Source: an uncultured Clostridium sp.
Lineage (GTDB): Bacteria; Bacillota; Clostridia; TANB77; CAG-508
DNA: 61,564 nt
Direction of reading: 5' to 3'
Assembly: GCA_900554565.1 (NCBI GenBank)
Contig: USHX01000005.1
Location: forward strand, 1 to 61,564
Shown here: positions 22,828 to 49,169 of the stretch, piece by piece
How the letters are laid out: the number at the start of each line of letters is the position of its first letter
How positions within the stretch are numbered: position 1 is the first letter of the stretch
Position numbers and translations under genes: made by a program
The notes under the pieces: generated by a model
Databases searched by the model: none
Seen by the model: the letters and a program-made list of their open reading frames with translations, nothing else
What the model was told of the DNA's origin: nothing

Positions 22828-23307
22828 CTAGCAGTTTTCTTGTTTGCAATCTTCCTTACCTAAGCAATCATCACTATTACAACAATCAATATTTCTATCA
22901 CATTTATCATCTAAAAAGCAATCGCATTTATCATGTTTATCACCTTTTAAGCATTTGCCTTCATGATGACATTTAGCACAAATTTTTATTTTTTTAGTAT
23001 CATTTACCCAAATTTGAAGTGCATATTCTTTACCTGGACATAAAGGGCCAAATACGAATTCTCCTTCTTTATCTGTGAAAGTATGACCAATAGGTCTTCT
23101 TTCTTCTTTTCCGTGTTCGAAAACAACCTCAACTAATTTTACAACTGCATCACATACAGGTTCTTTAAAACAATTTTTAACAACTCCATATATTACATCA
23201 CGATTATCTTCTGGAAGAGTAATATCAAGGTCAAATTGTTTGCCACCAGAAATGACTCCATCAACATCTAATACAGGGCAGTGTGGTCTTTTTTTATCTA
23301 TTTCCAT
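22828..23307 (-). CDS. hypothetical protein: N-terminal beta-sandwich-like (carboxypeptidase-regulatory-like) region plus Cys/Asp/Lys-rich tail; possible spore coat/exosporium component
   Basis: GVVKN..PVCDAVVKLVEV....GHTFTDKEGEFVFGPL.PGKEYALQIW, then about 17 Cys in the last ~55 residues (CAKCHHEGKCLKGDKHDKCDCFLDDKCDRNIDCCNSDDCLGKEDCKQENC). Confidence 0.65.
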   Translation of the reverse strand: MEIDKKRPHCPVLDVDGVISGGKQFDLDITLPEDNRDVIYGVVKNCFKEPVCDAVVKLVEVVFEHGKEERRPIGHTFTDKEGEFVFGPLCPGKEYALQIWVNDTKKIKICAKCHHEGKCLKGDKHDKCDCFLDDKCDRNIDCCNSDDCLGKEDCKQENC

Positions 23308-23561: not shown

Positions 23562-24860
23562 ATGAAAAGATTTATTATAGAAAAATTAGTAGAATGGAAA
23601 AACAATAAATATAGAAAACCATTGATTTTAAAGGGTGCAAGACAAATAGGTAAAACATATATACTAAAAGAATTTGGAAAAGAATATTATGAAGGTGTAG
23701 CATATTTTAACTTTGACCATGATGAAGATTTATATAACATATTTGAAAACACCAAAGAGCCAAGAAGAATATTAGAACAATTGTCATTTATATATGGAAA
23801 AGCAATATTGCCAGGAAAAACACTAATAATATTTGATGAAATACAAGAATGTCCAAATGCATTAAATAGTTTAAAATATTTTCAAGAAGAGGCAAATGAA
23901 TATCATATTGCATGTGCAGGAAGCTTATTAGGAATAAGATTATCACACACATCATTCCCAGTGGGAAAAGTAGAATTTCTAAATATGTATCCAATGACAT
24001 TTAGTGAATTTCTAATAGCAGACAATTGTGAAAATTTAGTTGAGTATATGAAGTCAATCACTAAAGTAGAGAAAATTCCTGATATATTTTTTAATCAGTT
24101 GGAAGAAAAGCTAAAAGCGTATTTCATAATAGGAGGAATGCCAGAAGCAGTTGAAATATGGGCAAATGAAAAAAACATTGAACTTGTAAACAATGTGCAG
24201 GAAAATATATTAAAAGCATATGAAAGTGATTTTTCAAAACATACCGGAAATAATGAAGCAAATAAAATATCTTTAATATGGAATAGTATACCATCACAAT
24301 TAGCAAAAGAAAATAAAAAATTTTTATATCAAACAGTAAAAAAGGGTGCTAGAGCAAGAGAATATGAAGATGCATTAAATTGGTTAAATGATGCAAATTT
24401 AATATATAAAATTTATGATGTAAAAAAGGCAGAATTTCCACTAAAAGCATATACAGATTTATCAGCATTTAAAATATACATGAATGATGTAGGATTGCTA
24501 AGAAGAATGGCAAACCTAGATAGCAGAATTGTAGTAGAAGGCGATAAATTATTTAAAGAATTTAAAGGAGCTTTTACAGAGAATTACATACTTAATATGT
24601 TAAATATTGTATTTGACTTAGTACCAAATTACTTTACATTTGATAGAAATGAGATAGATTTTGTTATTCAAAACAAAAATAAAATTATTCCAATAGAAGT
24701 AAAATCAAATAAATTTACAAACAATATAAGTTTAACTAAATATAGTGAAAAATTTGATAATGAATTGTCAATTAGGTTTTCTATGAATAATTTAGCTAAA
24801 GATGGAAAAATATTAAATGTGCCATTATTTTTAATCGAATATATAGAAAAATTCATATAA
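23562..24860 (+). CDS. AAA+ ATPase with C-terminal DUF4143-type domain
   Basis: Walker A LKGARQIGKTY, Walker B LIIFDEIQ. About 430 aa, typical of the AAA_14/DUF4143 family. Confidence 0.88.
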   Translation: MKRFIIEKLVEWKNNKYRKPLILKGARQIGKTYILKEFGKEYYEGVAYFNFDHDEDLYNIFENTKEPRRILEQLSFIYGKAILPGKTLIIFDEIQECPNALNSLKYFQEEANEYHIACAGSLLGIRLSHTSFPVGKVEFLNMYPMTFSEFLIADNCENLVEYMKSITKVEKIPDIFFNQLEEKLKAYFIIGGMPEAVEIWANEKNIELVNNVQENILKAYESDFSKHTGNNEANKISLIWNSIPSQLAKENKKFLYQTVKKGARAREYEDALNWLNDANLIYKIYDVKKAEFPLKAYTDLSAFKIYMNDVGLLRRMANLDSRIVVEGDKLFKEFKGAFTENYILNMLNIVFDLVPNYFTFDRNEIDFVIQNKNKIIPIEVKSNKFTNNISLTKYSEKFDNELSIRFSMNNLAKDGKILNVPLFLIEYIEKFI

Positions 24861-24862
24861 AT

Positions 24863-24910
24863 AAAATCTACAAGAATAAGTAGTTAAATAAGCTTATTTT
24901 TGTAGATTTT
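24863..24910 (+). terminator. rho-independent terminator
   Basis: aaaatctacaa ... ttgtagatttt stem followed by a T run. Confidence 0.7.
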
Positions 24911-25007
24911 TTGTTATATAAAATAAATTTTGAAATTATTTCACATATATTTTTATATGTTTGATAAAAAATATGCGGAATTTATCGAAAAAACTAGTAT
25001 ATTAATT

Positions 25008-25238
25008 TTATATAATGTAATGTTTATCATCTGTAAAACCAATTAACCAAATAGGAGATACATCAAAAAAATCAGCAATCTTAGTAATTGTAGAAATATC
25101 AGGTTTTAATTTACCATTAGCATACTTTGAAATAGTTCCTTTTGATTTTATGTCTAGACTTAAAGCAATTTTTTCATAACTTAAATTTGAATCTTTTAAA
25201 AGTTCAGTAAACCTTTCTGGAAAACGATAATTTAACAT
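25008..25238 (-). CDS. XRE-family helix-turn-helix transcriptional regulator
   Basis: F..LLKDSNLSYEKIALSLDIKSKGTISKYANGK..P...TITKIADFFDVSPIWL, classic HTH_3. Confidence 0.85.
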   Translation of the reverse strand: MLNYRFPERFTELLKDSNLSYEKIALSLDIKSKGTISKYANGKLKPDISTITKIADFFDVSPIWLIGFTDDKHYII

Positions 25239-25401
25239 ATTAACCTCCTATTAATATCAAGATTATAACACGATGAAAAAACTTTGTAAACAAAATAATA
25301 GTTAGAAAAATCAATTTTTGGTATCAGAAAAGTGGAAAGTATTGACATTTTTGACTAAATATTATATTATGTTTCCATCAAGGAAACGGTCGGAGGAAGA
25401 T

Positions 25402-25644
25402 ATGAGTTCAATAGATATAGGAAATAAAGTAAAAGAATTAATGAAAAAAAACAAAATGACAAACCTAGAATTAGCAAAGTTACTTAACATAGAAGAACAG
25501 GAATTAAGCGAGAAATTATCAGGTAAAGAAGAATTTTTAGCAACAGAGGCAACAAAAATTTCAAATATATTTAAAATAAGTATAAATGATTTTGCAAATA
25601 TTTTCTTTAATACAAATAAAGAAAAAATAAAAAATATAAAATAG
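25402..25644 (+). CDS. XRE-family helix-turn-helix protein (first gene of the cassette)
   Basis: ATG 25402 preceded by ggagga. IGNKVKELMKKNKMTNLELAKLLNIEEQELSEKLSGK. The longer track ORF from 25318 is an unsupported extension. Confidence 0.8.
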   Translation: MSSIDIGNKVKELMKKNKMTNLELAKLLNIEEQELSEKLSGKEEFLATEATKISNIFKISINDFANIFFNTNKEKIKNIK

Positions 25645-25653
25645 GAGAATCAT

Positions 25654-26673
25654 ATGAAAAAACAAACGGTACAACCACCAAAAACATGGAAAAACGTAGA
25701 AAATCATTATCTAAAGGCAATAGACAATGAATGGTATTTAGATTTAATAGAAATAGAAAATATGATAAATAAATATACAACACTATTCTATTCAGAAAAA
25801 AATATAAAGACACTACATATGCCAATTACAACAGGTTCAATATCAAGCCCAATGGGATTAGGAAGCGATTCATTACCAGTAAAAATAAAATTGCACAATA
25901 TAGATACATATTTAGCCGATTCAATGCAATTTTCTTTAGAATACGCAACAAGACTATTTAAAAATGGTGCATATTACATAATGCCATCATTTAGAGGAGA
26001 AAAGGAAGATGAGAGACATCTAAGTCAATTTTATCATAGTGAAGTGGAAATTGCAGGAACGTTAGAAGATGTAATGCAACTTGCAGAAGAATATATAAAA
26101 TATCTATCAAAAAATATTTTAAGAGAATTTGGAAATGAATTAGAAAAAATAGCCGGAGATACTGAGCATATAAAGAAATTGATTGAAACTAAGAAATTTC
26201 CAGTAGTAACATTTGAAGAAGCTTGTGAAATTTTAGAAAATTCAGATAGATATATTGAATACCATGAAGAAGGATTTAGAACAATAAATTCTCTTGGAGA
26301 AAAAGAACTTATAAAATATTTTGATGGTATTGTATGGCTAAAAAACTTTGATATCTTGTCAGTACCATTCTATCAAAACTGTACTCCAGATAAAAAATAT
26401 GCAATGAATGCAGATTTATTATTTGGAATAGGAGAAACACTAGGTGCGGGGGAAAGACATGAAACTGGTGAAGAGGCTAGACAAGCACTAAAAATGCATA
26501 ATGTAAATGAAAATGAATATGGATGGTATATAAAAATGAAAGATAAATATCCGCTAAAGACTTCTGGATATGGAATGGGAATAGAACGATACATATTATG
26601 GTTAACGAAAAAAGATGACATTAGAGACTGTCAATTGTTACCAAGATTTAATGGTGAAGAGATTGTAGTTTAA
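25654..26673 (+). CDS. class II aminoacyl-tRNA-synthetase catalytic-core paralogue (AsnRS/AspRS type) lacking the anticodon-binding domain; AsnA-like amino-acid adenylating ligase
   Basis: Motif 2-like PSFRGEKEDERHLSQFYHSEVE and motif 3-like SGYGMGIERYILWL. Collinear with the catalytic half of the asnS gene at 44758-46149, but without an N-terminal OB domain. Confidence 0.8.
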   Translation: MKKQTVQPPKTWKNVENHYLKAIDNEWYLDLIEIENMINKYTTLFYSEKNIKTLHMPITTGSISSPMGLGSDSLPVKIKLHNIDTYLADSMQFSLEYATRLFKNGAYYIMPSFRGEKEDERHLSQFYHSEVEIAGTLEDVMQLAEEYIKYLSKNILREFGNELEKIAGDTEHIKKLIETKKFPVVTFEEACEILENSDRYIEYHEEGFRTINSLGEKELIKYFDGIVWLKNFDILSVPFYQNCTPDKKYAMNADLLFGIGETLGAGERHETGEEARQALKMHNVNENEYGWYIKMKDKYPLKTSGYGMGIERYILWLTKKDDIRDCQLLPRFNGEEIVV

Positions 26674-26692
26674 ACAAAAATAGGAGAGTGTA

Positions 26693-27514
26693 ATGGATTT
26701 AAATGAAATATACAAAGTTACAAAAGATTCTAGAAGAGAAGAATTTGAAGTGGCTTTTGAGAAAATAAAAAAAGACTTTATAAGACAGCAATCAAAAAAA
26801 TGCGAGAAACCATTATTCATATTAGCTGGTGGACAACCTGGAAGTGGAAAAACAGGAATTATAGAGACTATAAAAAACAGCCATAGAGACAGGGAGTTTA
26901 TAGTAATAGATTTGGATGAATATAGAAAATATCATCCAAATTTTAAAGAAATAAGAGAAAAGTATCCTCAAGATGCAGTAACATTAACAAATGAATTTGT
27001 ATTTGAAATAGAAAACGAAATGTTGTCATATGTGAAAAAAAATAAAATAGATACTATAAATGTATCAACACTAAGAAATACAAGTCTGATATTAAAGTCA
27101 ATAGAAGAAATAAGAGAATGTGGTTTTAAAATTGAAGTTTATGTTATTGCAGTATCAGCAGAAGAAAGTTACTTTTCAACATTAACCAGATATCAAGAGC
27201 AAGAAAAAGACATGAGTGAAGTGCCTAGATTTGTTAGCAAAGATTTTCATGATATTTCATATAAGAGTTTAATGAATACAATAGAAAATTTTGAAAGAAT
27301 TAATATACCAATAACGGTTTTGAAAAGAGCTAAAGAAAAGAAACAACCAGCAATTATAGTTGATAGAGACAAAAATGTGATAGATGCAATAGAAAATATA
27401 AGAAAAGATACAAAAAATGAAGCAATAGAAAAGATTAAAAATAGTAAATTAAATTTTCATGAAAAAATAATTCAATTAGAATATGAAAAATTTCTTAAAG
27501 AAATAGGTGAATAA
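26693..27514 (+). CDS. zeta-toxin-family P-loop kinase
   Basis: LAGGQPGSGKTG Walker A followed by IDLDEYRKYHPNF, the signature layout of zeta/PezT-type toxins. Confidence 0.85.
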   Translation: MDLNEIYKVTKDSRREEFEVAFEKIKKDFIRQQSKKCEKPLFILAGGQPGSGKTGIIETIKNSHRDREFIVIDLDEYRKYHPNFKEIREKYPQDAVTLTNEFVFEIENEMLSYVKKNKIDTINVSTLRNTSLILKSIEEIRECGFKIEVYVIAVSAEESYFSTLTRYQEQEKDMSEVPRFVSKDFHDISYKSLMNTIENFERINIPITVLKRAKEKKQPAIIVDRDKNVIDAIENIRKDTKNEAIEKIKNSKLNFHEKIIQLEYEKFLKEIGE

Positions 27515-27518
27515 TAAA

Positions 27519-28769
27519 ATGAATGTAGAACCAATATTAATAGAAAGAAATGGCAGTAAATATATTGATAATATAAATTTAGAAAGTATAAAGGAAAAAG
27601 AACATGGTCCGATAATAATTTTTAATAAAAAAAGATTAATAACATTATCTGAATTTATAGATAAAAGCTTTAAAAAATATTATAAAAATACAGAAATACA
27701 TTATGCTATAAAAGCGTGCTATACACCAGAAGTATTGAAAACATTTCTTGAAAATGAACTAAGATTAGAAGTTATGTCAGAATTTGAATATAAATTAGCT
27801 AAAAAAGTAGGAGCGAATACTCAAGAATTAGTAGTAAATGGACCTGGAAAAACAGATGGACTGCTAGAAATGGTAATAAAAGAAAATGTGGAATCAATAA
27901 ATGTAGATTCTGAAGAAGAATTAGAAAAAATTATAGAAATATCTAAAAAATATAGTAAAAAAGTAAAAATAGGATTAAGAATACAACCAGATGTACCAAA
28001 AGATTCATTTTTAAAACGTGGTGAAAAATTAGGGGTCGATGAAAAAACGGGACAAGCAGAGAAAATAATAAAAAAAGCAATTAATGAACCTAATATAGAG
28101 TTAATAGGAATACAATTTCATTCTTTTATAAATCAAAGTAGTGATACTAATATAGTAAATGCATTAAAATATGTAATTAAATTTGTTTTAAATATGAAAG
28201 AAAGCTATGGATTTAAACCCGAATATATAGACATAGGTGGTGGACTAGCAACATTAGATAATTGGGAAAAGAATGGAATAGATATATTTGCTAAAAATGT
28301 AAGTTTAGAAATGAAAAAGATGAATTGGAATCCAAAATTAATACTAGAACCAGGAAGATTTTTGGTATCTGACTGCGCAATAGTAATAGCAAAGATAATA
28401 CGAAAAAAAATGAATGGCGACAAAAGATGGATTATTGTAAATGGGAATACAAATATGTTAATTCCATTAGCAAGTGCAGATTTTAAAGTGGAAAGCCTAA
28501 AATGTTATAATGATAATTTGGTTGAATATAATGTAGGGGATTGTTTATGCTCTGCAAGTGGTACAATACAAAGAGATGTAATGCTATCAGATGAGGTAGG
28601 AACAGGAGATTATATAATAATAAGAAATGCAGGATCATATACGATAAATTTATCAGAGCCATTTGCAGAACCAATAATGCCAATATTTATAACAAATAGT
28701 GGAAAATTAGAAAAAATACATAATGGTGTAGATATTGATAAAATGTTAGCATACTTTTTAAAAGGATAA
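27519..28769 (+). CDS. PLP-dependent decarboxylase, fold type III (Orn/DAP/Arg decarboxylase family)
   Basis: HYAIKAC (PLP Lys), IDIGGGL, LEPGRFLVSD, GDCLCSASG. ATG 27519 follows the RBS aggtga. Confidence 0.85.
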   Translation: MNVEPILIERNGSKYIDNINLESIKEKEHGPIIIFNKKRLITLSEFIDKSFKKYYKNTEIHYAIKACYTPEVLKTFLENELRLEVMSEFEYKLAKKVGANTQELVVNGPGKTDGLLEMVIKENVESINVDSEEELEKIIEISKKYSKKVKIGLRIQPDVPKDSFLKRGEKLGVDEKTGQAEKIIKKAINEPNIELIGIQFHSFINQSSDTNIVNALKYVIKFVLNMKESYGFKPEYIDIGGGLATLDNWEKNGIDIFAKNVSLEMKKMNWNPKLILEPGRFLVSDCAIVIAKIIRKKMNGDKRWIIVNGNTNMLIPLASADFKVESLKCYNDNLVEYNVGDCLCSASGTIQRDVMLSDEVGTGDYIIIRNAGSYTINLSEPFAEPIMPIFITNSGKLEKIHNGVDIDKMLAYFLKG

Positions 28770-28772
28770 ATT

Positions 28773-29303
28773 ATGAAAAAGTTAGTTGGGAAAAGAATAA
28801 TATTAAGACAATGGAAAAAAGAAGATTTGAAAGATCTATTTGAATATGCAAAGTTAGATTCGGTTGGCCCTAATGCAGGGTGGAAACCACATAAAAACAT
28901 TAAAGAATCAAAAGAAATATTAGAAAGCTTTATAAAAGGAAATGAAGTATATGCTATAGAATTAAAAAATGAAAGCAAAGTAATTGGAAGCATAGGATTT
29001 CATGATAGGATAATAGATAAAAAGTATGAAGCATTAAATCAAAGAGAAATAGGAATTGCCTTAAATCCTAAATATTGGGGAAATGAATACTCAAAAGAAG
29101 CAATTAATTTATTAATACAATATGGATTTAAAACTTTAAAATTAGATATGATATGGATGTGTCATCATGAAGAAAATACAAAATCAGAAAAAATGATAAA
29201 GAAATGTGGTTTTAAATATTGCCTAGAAAAAGAAATAACTTTAGAAAGATTGAACAACGAAAAAGTATTAGCAAAGTTTTATACTCTAAAAAATAAATTT
29301 TAA
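28773..29303 (+). CDS. GNAT N-acetyltransferase, RimJ/RimL (Acetyltransf_3) type
   Basis: RIILRQWKKEDLKDLFEYA...GWKPH.....S.E.L..F pattern, plus the later ..G.ALNPKYWG.GY..EA..LL..Y.F core. Confidence 0.85.
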   Translation: MKKLVGKRIILRQWKKEDLKDLFEYAKLDSVGPNAGWKPHKNIKESKEILESFIKGNEVYAIELKNESKVIGSIGFHDRIIDKKYEALNQREIGIALNPKYWGNEYSKEAINLLIQYGFKTLKLDMIWMCHHEENTKSEKMIKKCGFKYCLEKEITLERLNNEKVLAKFYTLKNKF

Positions 29304-29377
29304 ATTGGAAGATATAAATATCATAATCTCTAAGAACAAGCATACAATTAAAGTAGCTTGAACTTGGAGGTTTTTTT

Positions 29378-35893: not shown

Positions 35894-36829
35894 ATGGTTG
35901 AAGATAATCAAATAAAAGCACAAGTATCACCATTTGCAATAAGAGAAGGAGAAATAAAAACATTTGATGGAAAAGATGGATATGTATCAATGAATCAAAT
36001 AGTTCATAAAATCAATATAGGACATATAAATGAAATTCATTTTGCAATATTAGATTTAGTAAATGAATTTGAATTTATAACATCAAGACAATTATATCAA
36101 ATGCTTGAAATAAAAGGGATAGATCCAAAATCACAAGACAAATTAAATAATAAACTAGACCAATTAGTAAAATCTAAAATACTAACTAGATATTATTTTA
36201 CATCTGATGAAGGAAAAGGAATTTATAGAATATATTGCCTAGAAAAAATGGGAAAATATTTATTAAATTCAAAAGAAGTTGACTGTAAATGGCAACCATC
36301 AGATAATACAAAACCAGTTCCAATGATAAAGAAAAGATTAGCTGGAAATCAAACTTTAATAGCATATTTAAGAAAAGTTAAAGCATTTGATAGTTATGTT
36401 GTAAAACCAGCAATTACTGCAAAAGTTGCAGGAAAATTATTTAAAGCAACAGGAGGAGCTGTAAAATTAACTAAAAATGGAAAATCAATTCAATTTGTTT
36501 TCGAAGTAGTAAGAAGGGAACAAGATTGGCAAAAGAAAATAGTGGACAAAATGAGACTTTACAAAGACTTTTATGAGAACTTTGTTCAAGGTGATTCAGG
36601 ATTTTCATCAATGCCTCAATTAATTTTGATTTGTGAAGATGAAAAACATATGGCTGAAACATTTAGAGAAATTGTAACAAATCAAGTGGAAATTCCACAA
36701 ATTAAATTGTATTTTACAACAGATTTAAGACAAAATAAGGATACATTAGAAAATACTTTAGTTGAATTTAAATTAGTAGATGGAAAGTATAAAATGGAAG
36801 ATGTAGAGTTAAAGTTATTAGGTATGTAA
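35894..36829 (+). CDS. hypothetical protein with N-terminal winged-helix region resembling the replication-relaxation (Replic_Relax) family
   Basis: HFAILDLVNEFEFITSRQLYQML.....KLNNKLDQLVKSKILTRYYF...G.YRIYCLEKMGKYLL. Assignment by pattern only. Confidence 0.45.
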   Translation: MVEDNQIKAQVSPFAIREGEIKTFDGKDGYVSMNQIVHKINIGHINEIHFAILDLVNEFEFITSRQLYQMLEIKGIDPKSQDKLNNKLDQLVKSKILTRYYFTSDEGKGIYRIYCLEKMGKYLLNSKEVDCKWQPSDNTKPVPMIKKRLAGNQTLIAYLRKVKAFDSYVVKPAITAKVAGKLFKATGGAVKLTKNGKSIQFVFEVVRREQDWQKKIVDKMRLYKDFYENFVQGDSGFSSMPQLILICEDEKHMAETFREIVTNQVEIPQIKLYFTTDLRQNKDTLENTLVEFKLVDGKYKMEDVELKLLGM

Positions 36830-47408: not shown

Positions 47409-49169
47409 ATGAAAAAAAGTTTTTTAAATAGGACACTAAAAGGTACAAAAATATATATGATTCTAATCTTAATATTAAGTGCAATATATTCAAGATTACT
47501 GGTATATATACCTATGTTTATACAATATGCACTTGATGGTGTAATAATGGAAAAAGAAAGCATAATTCCAAGTTTAATAAGAAATTTATTTTATTCAAGT
47601 AACAAGTTATCAAAGATAATAGTTCTGGTTTTAGTATTAATAATGGTAAATATATTAGTATTTGTTGTAAAGTACTTGAAGAGTAAGATTAATACAAAAT
47701 TTAATTTAATAATAAATAGAAATGTCAAAGAAACAGTTTTAGATTATATTCCTAAAATAAATTATATGCAATTCAGCAATATAGACAAATCAAATGTAAT
47801 TCAAAGAGTAAATAATGATGCTACTACATATTCTGAATTTTTTAATTCTCAACTAAATTTATTTTTTGATACAATTTTTATTGTTATATTCGCAGTAGCA
47901 CAAACATTGAAATTAAATAGTACTGTTGGATTATTTATAGCTATAATTTGTGGAATGATAGTTGCATTATCTGTATGGTATTTTAAAGCATCAAGACCAT
48001 TAGTAGAAGATATTGTTGAAAAAAATAGAGAAGTAATAAATAAAACTACAATAGAAATAGAAGAATCTAAAATGCTAAAAATATTTAATAGAAGAGATAA
48101 AGAAATAGAAGATTTTTCAAAAATGAATAATAATTACAAGAAAAAAGAAATAGAACTAGCCAAAAAGAAAGTATTATATGGAATTGGAACACACACTTTA
48201 AGAAACTTTAAAGAACCATTTATATTATTATGGGGTGGAATATTAGTTGTACAAGGGGAAATGACACTTGCTACTATATCAATCTTATTAACATATTCAA
48301 CAAAAATATTAGAATACGTACATGAATCAGTAGATAAACTAAAGACAATAAATGAATTTGTTGTAGCGTATAAGAAGTTGTCAAATTTAATGAACTTAGA
48401 TGAAGATATAGAAAAAAATCCTTACATAAAAATAGATGGCGATATTGTTTTTGAGAATGTAAGCATAAAACTAAATGATAATACTGTATTAAAAAACTTG
48501 AATTTTACAATAAATAGAAATGAGAATGTAGCAATTATAGGAGATAACGGATCAGGGAAAACAGTTCTTTCAAAAACTTTAATAGGTTTTTATGATTATA
48601 CAGGAAATATATATATTGGACAACAAAATATAAAGGATATAAGTAAAAAGAGTTTAAGAGATTATATAGGAGTAGTTCTTCAAGACACGTATTTATTTAC
48701 AGATACTATTAAAGACAACATAAAGATTACAAATCAACTTATAAAAGATGAAAAAATAATAGAGGCTTGTAAATTAGCAGATATATACGAAGATATAAAA
48801 AGGTTTGATAAAAACATAGATTACATGATAGGAAAAGGCGGAAATAACATTTCAGGAGGACAAAAACAAAGAATTGCAATAGCAAGAACTTTAATAAAAC
48901 AAAGCAAATTTATAGTTTTTGATGATTCACTATCAAAACTTGACACAAGAACAAAACTAAATATATTAAACAATATTATAAAAATGAAAATTGGAACGAT
49001 AATAATTTCACACGATTTGGAAGTAGTGAAAAGATGCGATAAAGTTTTATTTATAAACAATAAAATTATTGAAATTGGAAAACATGAAGATTTAATGAAA
49101 TCAAACGAATCATATAAAGAAATTATAGAAATTAATAAAAATAAAATAATAGAAGATGAGGAAATTTAA
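47409..49169 (+). CDS. ABC exporter, fused permease/ATPase subunit 1
   Basis: Six-TM ABC_membrane region, Walker A GDNGSGKT, signature ISGGQKQR, Walker B FIVFDD. Confidence 0.9.
   Translation: MKKSFLNRTLKGTKIYMILILILSAIYSRLLVYIPMFIQYALDGVIMEKESIIPSLIRNLFYSSNKLSKIIVLVLVLIMVNILVFVVKYLKSKINTKFNLIINRNVKETVLDYIPKINYMQFSNIDKSNVIQRVNNDATTYSEFFNSQLNLFFDTIFIVIFAVAQTLKLNSTVGLFIAIICGMIVALSVWYFKASRPLVEDIVEKNREVINKTTIEIEESKMLKIFNRRDKEIEDFSKMNNNYKKKEIELAKKKVLYGIGTHTLRNFKEPFILLWGGILVVQGEMTLATISILLTYSTKILEYVHESVDKLKTINEFVVAYKKLSNLMNLDEDIEKNPYIKIDGDIVFENVSIKLNDNTVLKNLNFTINRNENVAIIGDNGSGKTVLSKTLIGFYDYTGNIYIGQQNIKDISKKSLRDYIGVVLQDTYLFTDTIKDNIKITNQLIKDEKIIEACKLADIYEDIKRFDKNIDYMIGKGGNNISGGQKQRIAIARTLIKQSKFIVFDDSLSKLDTRTKLNILNNIIKMKIGTIIISHDLEVVKRCDKVLFINNKIIEIGKHEDLMKSNESYKEIIEINKNKIIEDEEI

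Follow-up and report, generated by a model that had tools for sequence, protein, structure and literature searches.

What does a gut bacterium do with a truncated tRNA synthetase that is encoded in one operon with a zeta-toxin-like kinase, a decarboxylase, and an acetyltransferase? The operon lies at positions 24860–29308 of the window, by which we mean the whole 61,564-nt stretch of contig USHX01000005.1 that was analyzed, which belongs to the genome of an uncultured member of the Clostridia from a Hadza gut metagenome (L014 in our numbering of the loci compared). We consider it probable, judging from comparative sequence evidence, that this segment is an aminoacyl-nucleotide antimetabolite cassette of the AgnA type, AgnA being the truncated synthetase of the agrocin 84 (agn) gene cluster. 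An earlier note on this DNA had left a choice between a modified aminoacyl-nucleotide antimetabolite with self-immunity provided by a GNAT acetyltransferase and an elaborated toxin-antitoxin or abortive-infection module. The former is favored by the comparison with other loci: the ligase falls into the AgnA family, this family is linked, in different phyla, to MccF-like, MccD-like, and GNAT genes (the Mcc proteins being those of microcin C), and in Pantoea a GNAT appears fused to the ligase. The segment and its genes are as follows.

24860–29308, no strand: strain-variable cassette segment of 4449 bp with six genes, delimited by blastn against L105/L107
25008–25238, minus strand: XRE-family helix-turn-helix (HTH) regulator, XRE(-), 76 aa, divergent from the operon (Pfam HTH_3 1.8e-10)
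25402–25644, plus strand: XRE-type HTH protein, XRE(+), 80 aa, opening the operon (Pfam HTH_26 3.9e-6, HTH_60, HTH_3)
25654–26673, plus strand: AgnA-family ligase, 339 aa, proposed warhead synthase
26693–27514, plus strand: P-loop kinase of the zeta/PezT fold, 273 aa, with a proposed role in phosphorylation of the nucleotide product, for self-protection or tailoring
27519–28769, plus strand: fold-III pyridoxal phosphate (PLP)-dependent decarboxylase of the Orn/DAP/Arg family (DAP, diaminopimelate), 416 aa, proposed tailoring step
28773–29303, plus strand: Acetyltransf_3 GNAT of the RimJ/RimL/SpeG/MccE C-terminal domain type, 176 aa, proposed to provide self-protection by N-acetylation

The open reading frame (ORF) listing and reading of the sequence confirmed five co-directional genes with gaps of 9, 19, 4, and 3 nt, and the second member of the divergent XRE pair was found on the minus strand. 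All family calls made in the earlier note were upheld by Pfam/NCBIfam (tRNA-synt_2, Zeta_toxin, Orn_Arg_deC_N plus its C-terminal domain, and Acetyltransf_3). As it had also stated, the cassette contains neither a ThiF/MccB-type gene nor a recognizable antitoxin of the epsilon/PezA type. The start of the decarboxylase was placed at ATG 27519; an alternative GTG at 27507 is also in the open frame.

Assignment of the Ligase to the AgnA Family

The 339-aa ligase has a class II (IIb) catalytic core of the AsnRS type, matched Pfam tRNA-synt_2 over residues 15–331 (7e-35), and has no anticodon-binding (OB) domain PF01336, which is present in the window's own asparaginyl-tRNA synthetase (AsnRS, 463 aa). 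In a tblastn search against plasmids it was 39.3% identical over 98% of its length to agnA of pAgK84, annotated as 'Agrocin84-synthetase' (pairwise E-value 1e-91), and its identity to genuine AsnRS was only 26–28%. Alignment with the AsnRS of P. horikoshii revealed all the AsnRS motifs (S-x-Q...E, fRxE...RHL..F.H.E.E, GxGE..G..R, and GxGxGxER), 70 columns were invariant across 59 family members, and the residues of the AsnRS amino-acid site were kept in the whole family, AgnA included. Because these residues are kept and the family is strongly conserved across phyla, its substrates are expected to be universal primary metabolites. In a neighbor-joining tree the AgnA family formed a tight clade, separated by a long branch from the window AsnRS, with AgnA branching off earliest and the window ligase inside. 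On sequence grounds, what had been described as an 'AsnRS core' thus belongs to the AgnA family.

AgnA is a truncated AsnRS homologue without an anticodon-binding domain that has been proposed to join the acyl moiety of agrocin 84 to AMP via a phosphoramide bond (PMC8323819). Relatives of agrocin 84 have been reported only from an Ensifer cluster and some actinobacterial clusters (PMC8323819, PMC4392301). The AsnA-type aspartyl-adenylate chemistry that had been put forward for the ligase is an assumption, as the protein is closer to genuine AsnRS (2e-25) than to the archaeal AsnRS-related asparagine synthetase AS-AR (PDB 1nnh/3p8t; 6e-12). With AS-AR, and with SlgZ of the streptolydigin cluster, the ligase shares an AsnRS core without the anticodon domain and a role outside translation. 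The match to AS-AR is, however, weaker than that to AsnRS or AgnA, and the neighborhoods of the ligase are those of toxin clusters, not of asparagine synthesis.

The earlier note recognized no described system in this locus. That holds only in part, since a relative that had been missed, the agn cluster of Rhizobium rhizogenes K84 (plasmid pAgK84; AgnA, AgnB1, AgnB2, and AgnC1–C7), is the closest known system. The ligase and AgnA are homologous over their full length (39%), both are truncated AsnRSs without the anticodon domain, and both can be counted as the leading gene of their operon, if one allows for the XRE(+) gene that precedes the ligase in the window. Moreover, the relatives of the window ligase at 65–68% identity sit with counterparts of AgnB1, AgnC1, AgnC4, and AgnC5, and with short-chain dehydrogenases/reductases (SDRs), radical-SAM proteins, and a leucyl-tRNA synthetase (LeuRS). 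On the other hand, the window has no AgnB1, AgnB2, AgnC1–C7, or exporter, and instead carries the kinase, the decarboxylase, the GNAT, and two XRE genes; its host belongs to the gut Clostridia and not to the plant-associated alphaproteobacteria. Since the gene content differs from agn, the product of the window is not expected to be agrocin 84 itself.

Partners of the Ligase Family

In a scan with each species represented by one genome, 230 ligase relatives were found, hosted by Firmicutes, bacteria of the Candidate Phyla Radiation (CPR), Actinobacteria, Streptomyces, Vibrio, Photobacterium, Providencia, Rahnella, Legionella, and others. The neighborhoods were counted over 80 fetched loci of these approximately 230. 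An S66 peptidase was encoded at most 10 kb from the ligase in 59 of the 80 loci, and a class I 'methyltransferase' homologous to the one adjacent to agnA in 32. One ligase-linked S66 peptidase matched MccF-type structures with E-values of up to 5e-100 and E. coli MccF with 3e-15, while LdcA came last. A ligase-adjacent 'methyltransferase' could be aligned over its full length with MccD (30% identity, 3e-30), the 3-amino-3-carboxypropyl transferase of microcin C (PMC8323819).

The closest relatives of the ligase outside its own type, at the 65–68% identity mentioned above, were found in L010, L015-18, and L094-96, and the clusters there mirror agn: the ligase is accompanied by an MccD/AgnB1-like protein, an S66 peptidase, an AgnC1-like protein, an Amidohydro_2 protein, SDRs, a radical-SAM protein, and a terminal LeuRS. 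None of the partners found in these loci (AgnB1/MccD-like transferase, AgnC1, MccF-like peptidase, resistant LeuRS, or exporter) is encoded within 24860–29308 of the window. AgnB2 is an agrocin-resistant LeuRS. AgnC5 is annotated as 'MccF-like', and the Amidohydro_2 protein of the gut clusters resembles AgnC4. The AgnC1-like protein is a 387-aa protein of L010 (8e-10); the u379 and u442 proteins were also considered as AgnC1 homologues and were not significant. The agn-mirroring clusters came from human- and animal-gut Clostridia (metagenome contigs and contigs of metagenome-assembled genomes), some with a SAM (S-adenosylmethionine) synthetase gene upstream, and no literature report of agrocin-like clusters in Firmicutes was found. 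A PNP_UDP_1 protein of related clusters was tried as a methylthioadenosine nucleosidase serving MccD chemistry and discarded, as it scored better as an AMP nucleosidase or uridine phosphorylase.

A smaller relative of the cassette occurs on Pantoea agglomerans plasmids, where a 531-aa in-frame GNAT-ligase fusion is followed by a gene for a major facilitator superfamily (MFS) transporter. The GNAT part of the fusion is 32% and the ligase part 55% identical to the window proteins. Six P. agglomerans plasmids showed this arrangement (L110 4962–7785, NZ_CP034471.1), and strain BIM B-2003 (L109) has a truncated GNAT part. Homologues of the window GNAT were also found in four further ligase loci.

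Robertmurraya beringensis, a cultured member of the Bacillaceae, carries a ten-gene cluster (L037 8818–19153) in which the S66 gene is divergent from the others. These are, in order, the genes for the ligase, an ATP-grasp ligase, an MccD-like protein, an APH-type kinase, a ParA/Mrp-like protein, a PLP-dependent decarboxylase, a NUDIX protein, a second ATP-grasp ligase, and an MFS exporter. The decarboxylase is 31% identical to that of the window. The kinase is non-homologous to the window kinase, yet it is also paired with a decarboxylase beside the ligase. As a tractable organism, R. beringensis would lend itself to a search for the product class.

Taken by gene content, the partners of the ligase family, which comprise microcin C tailoring and immunity functions, exporters, and resistant tRNA synthetases, are the signature of clusters for aminoacyl-adenylate mimics and not of asparagine synthesis.

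Conservation of the Ligase-Kinase-Decarboxylase-GNAT Set

The co-occurrence of the four enzymes, which the earlier note had proposed to check across genomes, turned out to be conserved: the set, in part without the GNAT, recurs in at least four further contexts. The six-gene arrangement was identical in six gut-metagenome contigs besides the window (seven independent contigs). On a different Clostridia backbone, ligase, kinase, and decarboxylase genes stand beside asnS (L007-9). In L102 and L192-194 the order is ligase, kinase, decarboxylase, GNAT, an AMP-binding enzyme, and asnS, and in L103/L104 the same four genes are followed by an MccF-like S66 peptidase, and S51 peptidases, another GNAT, and a NUDIX protein are encoded close by. 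The gene order in all these loci is the same and the flanks differ; XRE genes or an antitoxin were found in none of them. In L102 and L103 the decarboxylase and GNAT genes share a single base. The association is specific to this kind of kinase, in that none of 77 metagenome loci of ordinary zeta toxins (25–36% identity), used as a control, carried a homologue of the ligase, decarboxylase, GNAT, or S66 peptidase.

S51 peptidases confer resistance to microcin C (PMC9239234). Near the Bacilli cassettes they were found together with extra GNATs and NUDIX proteins (L192 15381–16604; L103 1235–3698), one S51 peptidase being fused to an Acetyltransf_3 GNAT, and these surroundings look like a concentration of microcin C resistance-type genes.

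The kinase subfamily comprised approximately 25 clusters at 44–56% identity that were set sharply apart from the superfamily, and a metagenome scan with a kinase profile added only three more close relatives. Likewise, the decarboxylase subfamily consisted of 15 clusters with at least 56% identity, after which identity dropped to 38%. In the ligase tree, the kinase/decarboxylase cassettes fell into two separate lineages, the first beside the clostridial agn-like clusters and the second within the Bacilli clusters with MccD-like and S66 genes. Therefore, tailoring and immunity modules appear to have been swapped behind a vertically evolving ligase; module swapping behind a core enzyme is usual in biosynthetic clusters.

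The Kinase and Its Occurrence without the Ligase

The kinase matched the Pfam family Zeta_toxin with an E-value of 1.9e-39, PezT with 1e-21, and zeta with 4e-20. Its AlphaFold model had a pLDDT (predicted local distance difference test) of 94, and Foldseek gave TM (template modeling) scores of 0.70–0.76 to PezT/zeta and 0.54–0.58 to AvrRxo1. The Walker A motif GGQPGSGKT, Asp75, Arg166, and Arg179 are invariant in the subfamily. The fold, Walker A motif, catalytic Asp, and two Arg residues are thus common to the window kinase and to the UDP-GlcNAc 3'-kinases of the epsilon/zeta and PezAT systems and the NAD 3'-kinase AvrRxo1. Unlike the kinases of epsilon/zeta and PezAT, the window kinase has no antitoxin and belongs to a small subfamily that occurs with the ligase and decarboxylase or alone. 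Furthermore, the UDP-GlcNAc-binding EGTxR motif of zeta/PezT is replaced throughout the subfamily by NVSTLR, in which Thr and Arg are kept, Glu is changed to Val, and Gly to Ser. Zeta Glu116, which we take to be required for toxicity, aligns with Val in the window kinase. Considering the motif change together with this presumed role of Glu116, the substrate pocket of the kinase is probably altered relative to zeta/PezT.

In L101, L111, and L112 an intact kinase gene is surrounded by remains of the cassette, namely ligase residues 223–339 and a 31-residue scrap of the decarboxylase. In the decayed cassette of L101 (6551–7864), the ligase is reduced to its last 117 residues, and the kinase, whose cluster comprises 121 member sequences, has 287 aa. 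The kinase stands alone in L100 and L113 and, in a 192-aa form, in L105-107. Three lineages thus keep the kinase without a working ligase, and no antitoxin was found near it in any context examined. This pattern would suggest an immunity or resistance gene kept by non-producers, and not a tailoring enzyme or an unopposed toxin. The APH-type kinase of Robertmurraya fits this idea.

The Decarboxylase, the GNAT, and the Comparison with Microcin C

The decarboxylase, a divergent member of its family, matched Pfam Orn_Arg_deC_N (8e-36) and Orn_DAP_Arg_deC (1e-8) and stayed below the lysA equivalog cut-off (TIGR01048; 190 vs. 298 bits). Among PDB structures, DAP decarboxylase (2e-33) and BtrK (2e-23) were followed by DokD and FslC, the first three of these scoring above MccE, with whose N-terminal domain the identity was 23% (1e-9). 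BtrK, FslC, and the N-terminal domain of MccE act on amino acids that are conjugated at the distal end. A side-chain-linked Asp/Asn-nucleotide would therefore fit the substrate type of the decarboxylase.

For the GNAT, the match to Pfam Acetyltransf_3 had an E-value of 2.6e-25 and the identity to the C-terminal domain of MccE was 29% (2e-4). The single-sequence AlphaFold model reached a pLDDT of 51 and was not usable. A profile of the ligase-linked GNATs was compared with the PDB and matched 3fbu (3e-22), RimJ (1e-13), SpeG (approximately 1e-12), MccE (1.8e-8), and RimL (7e-6).

The analogy to MccE that the earlier note had drawn therefore stands for the domain families and their order. It does not extend to specific orthology, as 3fbu, RimJ, SpeG, DAP decarboxylase, and BtrK are closer, and MccD is absent. 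In the comparison with the microcin C cluster of E. coli (mccABCDEF), the decarboxylase gene followed by that of an Acetyltransf_3 GNAT repeats the order of the two domains of MccE, MccD-, MccF-, and MccE-like genes accompany the ligase family taken as a whole, and both systems would have self-immunity in layers and a product of the same expected class, a non-hydrolysable mimic of an aminoacyl-adenylate. In contrast, MccA, the ThiF-type MccB, MccC, MccD, and MccF have no counterpart in the window, the likeness to MccE is at family level only (23% and 29% identity), and the adenylating enzyme is a tRNA-synthetase paralogue; because of the latter, no ribosomal peptide carrier is expected to be involved.

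Genomic Site and Probable Regulation of the Cassette

In three contigs of the same species (L105-L107), the flanks were 98–99.7% identical to the window up to 24859 and from 29309 onwards by blastn; the variable segment is therefore 24860–29308. At this site the three contigs hold 596 bp coding for the 192-aa zeta-like kinase (47% identity to the window kinase). Its gene (L105 7001–7579; L106; L107 2906–3484) lies exactly at the cassette site, 18 nt past the gene for PDC-S01, and the protein keeps all catalytic residues and is without the N-terminal 40 and the C-terminal 50 residues. Possibly, this is an orphan immunity gene. The conserved backbone neighbors of the site are PDC-S01 upstream and a polysaccharide deacetylase downstream. 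PDC-S01 (23562–24860, plus strand) is an ATPase with AAA_14 and DUF4143 domains and belongs to a candidate defense family in PADLOC (1.6e-174); it was found in strains both with and without the cassette.

The deviating codon style that had been ascribed to the cassette was not borne out. Its third-position composition (A3 0.54–0.57, T3 0.27–0.31, G3 0.09–0.11) lies within 1 SD of that of 24 other window genes (A3 0.58 ± 0.07, T3 0.27 ± 0.07, G3 0.08 ± 0.05), and its G+C content is unremarkable. Codon style was therefore dropped as a sign of foreign origin, and the foreign, accessory nature of the cassette is shown by the strain comparison.

Two further features lie upstream of the operon.

24863–24910, plus strand: inverted repeat of 18 nt followed by a T run, 94% complementary, terminator-like, A+T-rich, just past the stop codon of the PDC-S01 gene
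25262–25370, both strands: back-to-back divergent promoter-like sites in the XRE-XRE spacer (minus 25290–25262; plus 25342–25370)

Both promoter-like sites are sigma-70-like with 11 of 12 matches each and were the top scorers of a 4.8-kb scan, and the one on the minus strand carries a TG extension; they are consensus matches only, and the total of such sites in the region was no higher than in shuffled sequence. A Shine-Dalgarno-like sequence precedes every one of the five starts, that of XRE(+) being GGAGG, 7 nt 5' of the ATG. The 76-aa XRE(-) protein showed a weak RstR-like match. The XRE(+) protein consists of an HTH only, without a PezA-like toxin-binding C-terminal domain, and scored 17 bits with the PezA model against a cut-off of 290.

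Elsewhere in the surroundings, a cysteine-rich 159-aa protein without a family match (22828–23307, minus strand) is kept in all related contigs, and a protein with a Replic_Relax (replication-relaxation) domain is encoded approximately 6.5 kb downstream of the cassette (35894–36829, plus strand), hinting at the remnant of a mobile element. A 2219-aa protein with GH94 supersandwich and glucoamylase-like domains (9374–16033, plus strand) is overlapped in another frame by a 501-aa ORF with a GH94 catalytic domain (15930–17435, plus strand); the two may represent a single cyclic-glucan-synthase/phosphorylase-like gene that a frameshift or faulty assembly has broken up. The gene at 47409–49169 was considered as an aspartyl-tRNA synthetase in synteny with L007 and rejected, since Pfam gives an ABC exporter. 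The asnS genes beside the cassette in L007 and L102/L192 were examined as adjacent resistance copies and proved to be ordinary asnS equivalogs; in the window, asnS lies 15 kb from the cassette. The adjacency in these relatives is suggestive of a resistance link but unproven.

Proposed Function and Alternative Explanations

If the segment is an antimetabolite cassette of the AgnA type, its product would be a small aminoacyl-nucleotide that imitates an aminoacyl-adenylate, resists hydrolysis, and poisons an aminoacyl-tRNA synthetase, while the producer is protected. Any single step assigned in the following is doubtful when taken by itself. By homology, the ligase would use ATP and an amino acid of the Asn/Asp type to form the warhead, which is probably a nucleotide of the N-acyl phosphoramidate type, like those of agrocin 84 and processed microcin C. 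The decarboxylase would strip the alpha-carboxyl group from an amino-acid moiety attached by its distal end, leaving a primary amine. The GNAT may acetylate the free amino group of the toxic species, like the C-terminal domain of MccE, and the zeta-fold kinase may phosphorylate a hydroxyl group of the nucleotide, so that the two enzymes would mask the compound inside the producer; alternatively, the GNAT or the kinase may tailor the product. XRE(+) and the divergent XRE(-) would control one operon from back-to-back promoters.

Several observations speak against this proposal. The reaction proposed for AgnA itself still awaits demonstration, and how agrocin 84 is made is not known (PMC8323819). 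The cassette has no genes for an exporter, a carrier peptide, or an uptake moiety, which leaves the exit of the product and its entry into a target cell unexplained. The decarboxylase of MccE needs MccD, the maker of its substrate, and the cassette has no MccD-like transferase that could supply a substrate of the MccE type. The GNAT is not specifically MccE-like, as SpeG and RimJ score higher. Members of the ligase family are also found in CPR bacteria, whose tiny genomes do not usually hold antibiotic clusters, and the cassette adjoins a candidate phage-defense gene. Finally, NCBIfam models name this family 'asparagine synthetase A'; the window ligase scores 315 bits against a cut-off of 322 for NF005053 and 276 against 389 for NF005055, below the cut-off in both cases.

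The same chemistry could be used internally, in toxin/immunity or defense of the abortive-infection type: on a phage or stress trigger the cell would block its own tRNA synthetase, the GNAT and kinase would otherwise keep the compound harmless, and the XRE pair would be the switch. We regard this as unlikely. The lack of an exporter would be explained, as would the position directly after PDC-S01 in a strain-variable spot, and divergent XRE pairs are typical of mobile and defense modules. In addition, the ligase lies just downstream of rel in Bacilli in 15 of the 80 loci. In many reduced Bacilli genomes (L035, L039, L043, L045, L052, L053, L062, L070, L075, L102, L103, and L192) it starts 24–50 nt after a RelA/SpoT-homologue gene on the same strand. 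This adjacency may reflect a link to the stringent response or only a conserved position. However, no PADLOC defense model matches any of the four enzymes (ligase, decarboxylase, and GNAT had no match and the kinase only mad8 with 0.0028), and the XRE proteins match only generic HTH models there. The AgnA-family ligase is also absent from phage and viral collections, in which only AsnRS at 28% identity or less was found. Moreover, the presence of PDC-S01 does not depend on that of the cassette, the relatives in other backbones are without XRE genes, and in related clusters there are MFS/ABC exporters and ATP-grasp ligases, as is typical where the product is secreted.

Ordinary metabolism, in which the enzymes would be an AsnA-like asparagine synthetase, a DAP/ornithine-type decarboxylase, a SpeG-like polyamine acetyltransferase, and a nucleotide kinase, appears very improbable to us. 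It would accord with the 315-bit score of the ligase, with the proximity of the decarboxylase to DAP decarboxylases, with the SpeG matches of the GNAT, and with the presence of the ligase family in reduced genomes. Against this, the NCBIfam models also match AgnA itself with 191–199 bits, so that the name 'asparagine synthetase A' is no evidence of function, and the database names for the whole AgnA family are probably over-annotations. The decarboxylase misses the lysA cut-off by the margin given above, the cassette is missing from sister strains of the same species, and the links of the ligase family are to genes for MccF-like and MccD-like proteins, exporters, and resistant aminoacyl-tRNA synthetases and not to amino-acid pathways.

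We give hardly any credence to an epsilon/zeta- or PezAT-like toxin-antitoxin pair, in which the kinase would phosphorylate UDP-GlcNAc, an XRE protein would be the antitoxin, and the other three genes would be passengers: the kinase has the Zeta_toxin family and fold with Walker A and catalytic Asp intact, and PezA does have an N-terminal XRE-type HTH, to which the weak PezA match of XRE(+) corresponds, but XRE(+) ends after its HTH and the ligase gene stands between its gene and that of the kinase, L007, L102, L103, and L192 have the kinase with ligase and decarboxylase and no XRE protein or antitoxin, the kinase is solitary in L100 and L105-107, its EGTxR motif is altered, and 0 of 77 canonical zeta loci have these neighbors.

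Significance

Since the sequencing of agn in 2006 it has not become known how the phosphoramidate bond of agrocin 84 is formed, and the compound has been described as the sole member of its class (PMC8323819). In the literature that could be searched we found no description of the present gene set or of a wide distribution of AgnA-like ligases with MccD-, MccE-, and MccF-type partners. Of known systems, the agn and mcc clusters are closest to the cassette. The compact and transcriptionally simple cassette of the window and the smaller Pantoea relative with its GNAT-ligase fusion and exporter would be much easier to reconstitute than the 17-gene agn cluster.

We tentatively propose, going somewhat beyond what we would ourselves bet on, that AgnA-type tRNA-synthetase paralogues are a widespread, peptide-independent route to phosphoramidate poisons that resemble microcin C and agrocin and imitate aminoacyl-adenylates, present in approximately 230 species. 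The window would hold a minimal four-enzyme version, whose warhead would be doubly masked by kinase and GNAT, and the kinase would serve immunity by detoxification and persist as an orphan where no product is made. If an aminoacyl-tRNA synthetase is inhibited by the product, the MccD/MccE/MccF-type and agrocin genes would form one toolkit with two unrelated adenylating enzymes, and new warhead scaffolds and resistance enzymes would become available. The zeta-toxin fold would gain a non-toxin role outside toxin-antitoxin pairs, which matters for gene annotation, and the cassette would be a strain-level weapon among human-gut Clostridia.

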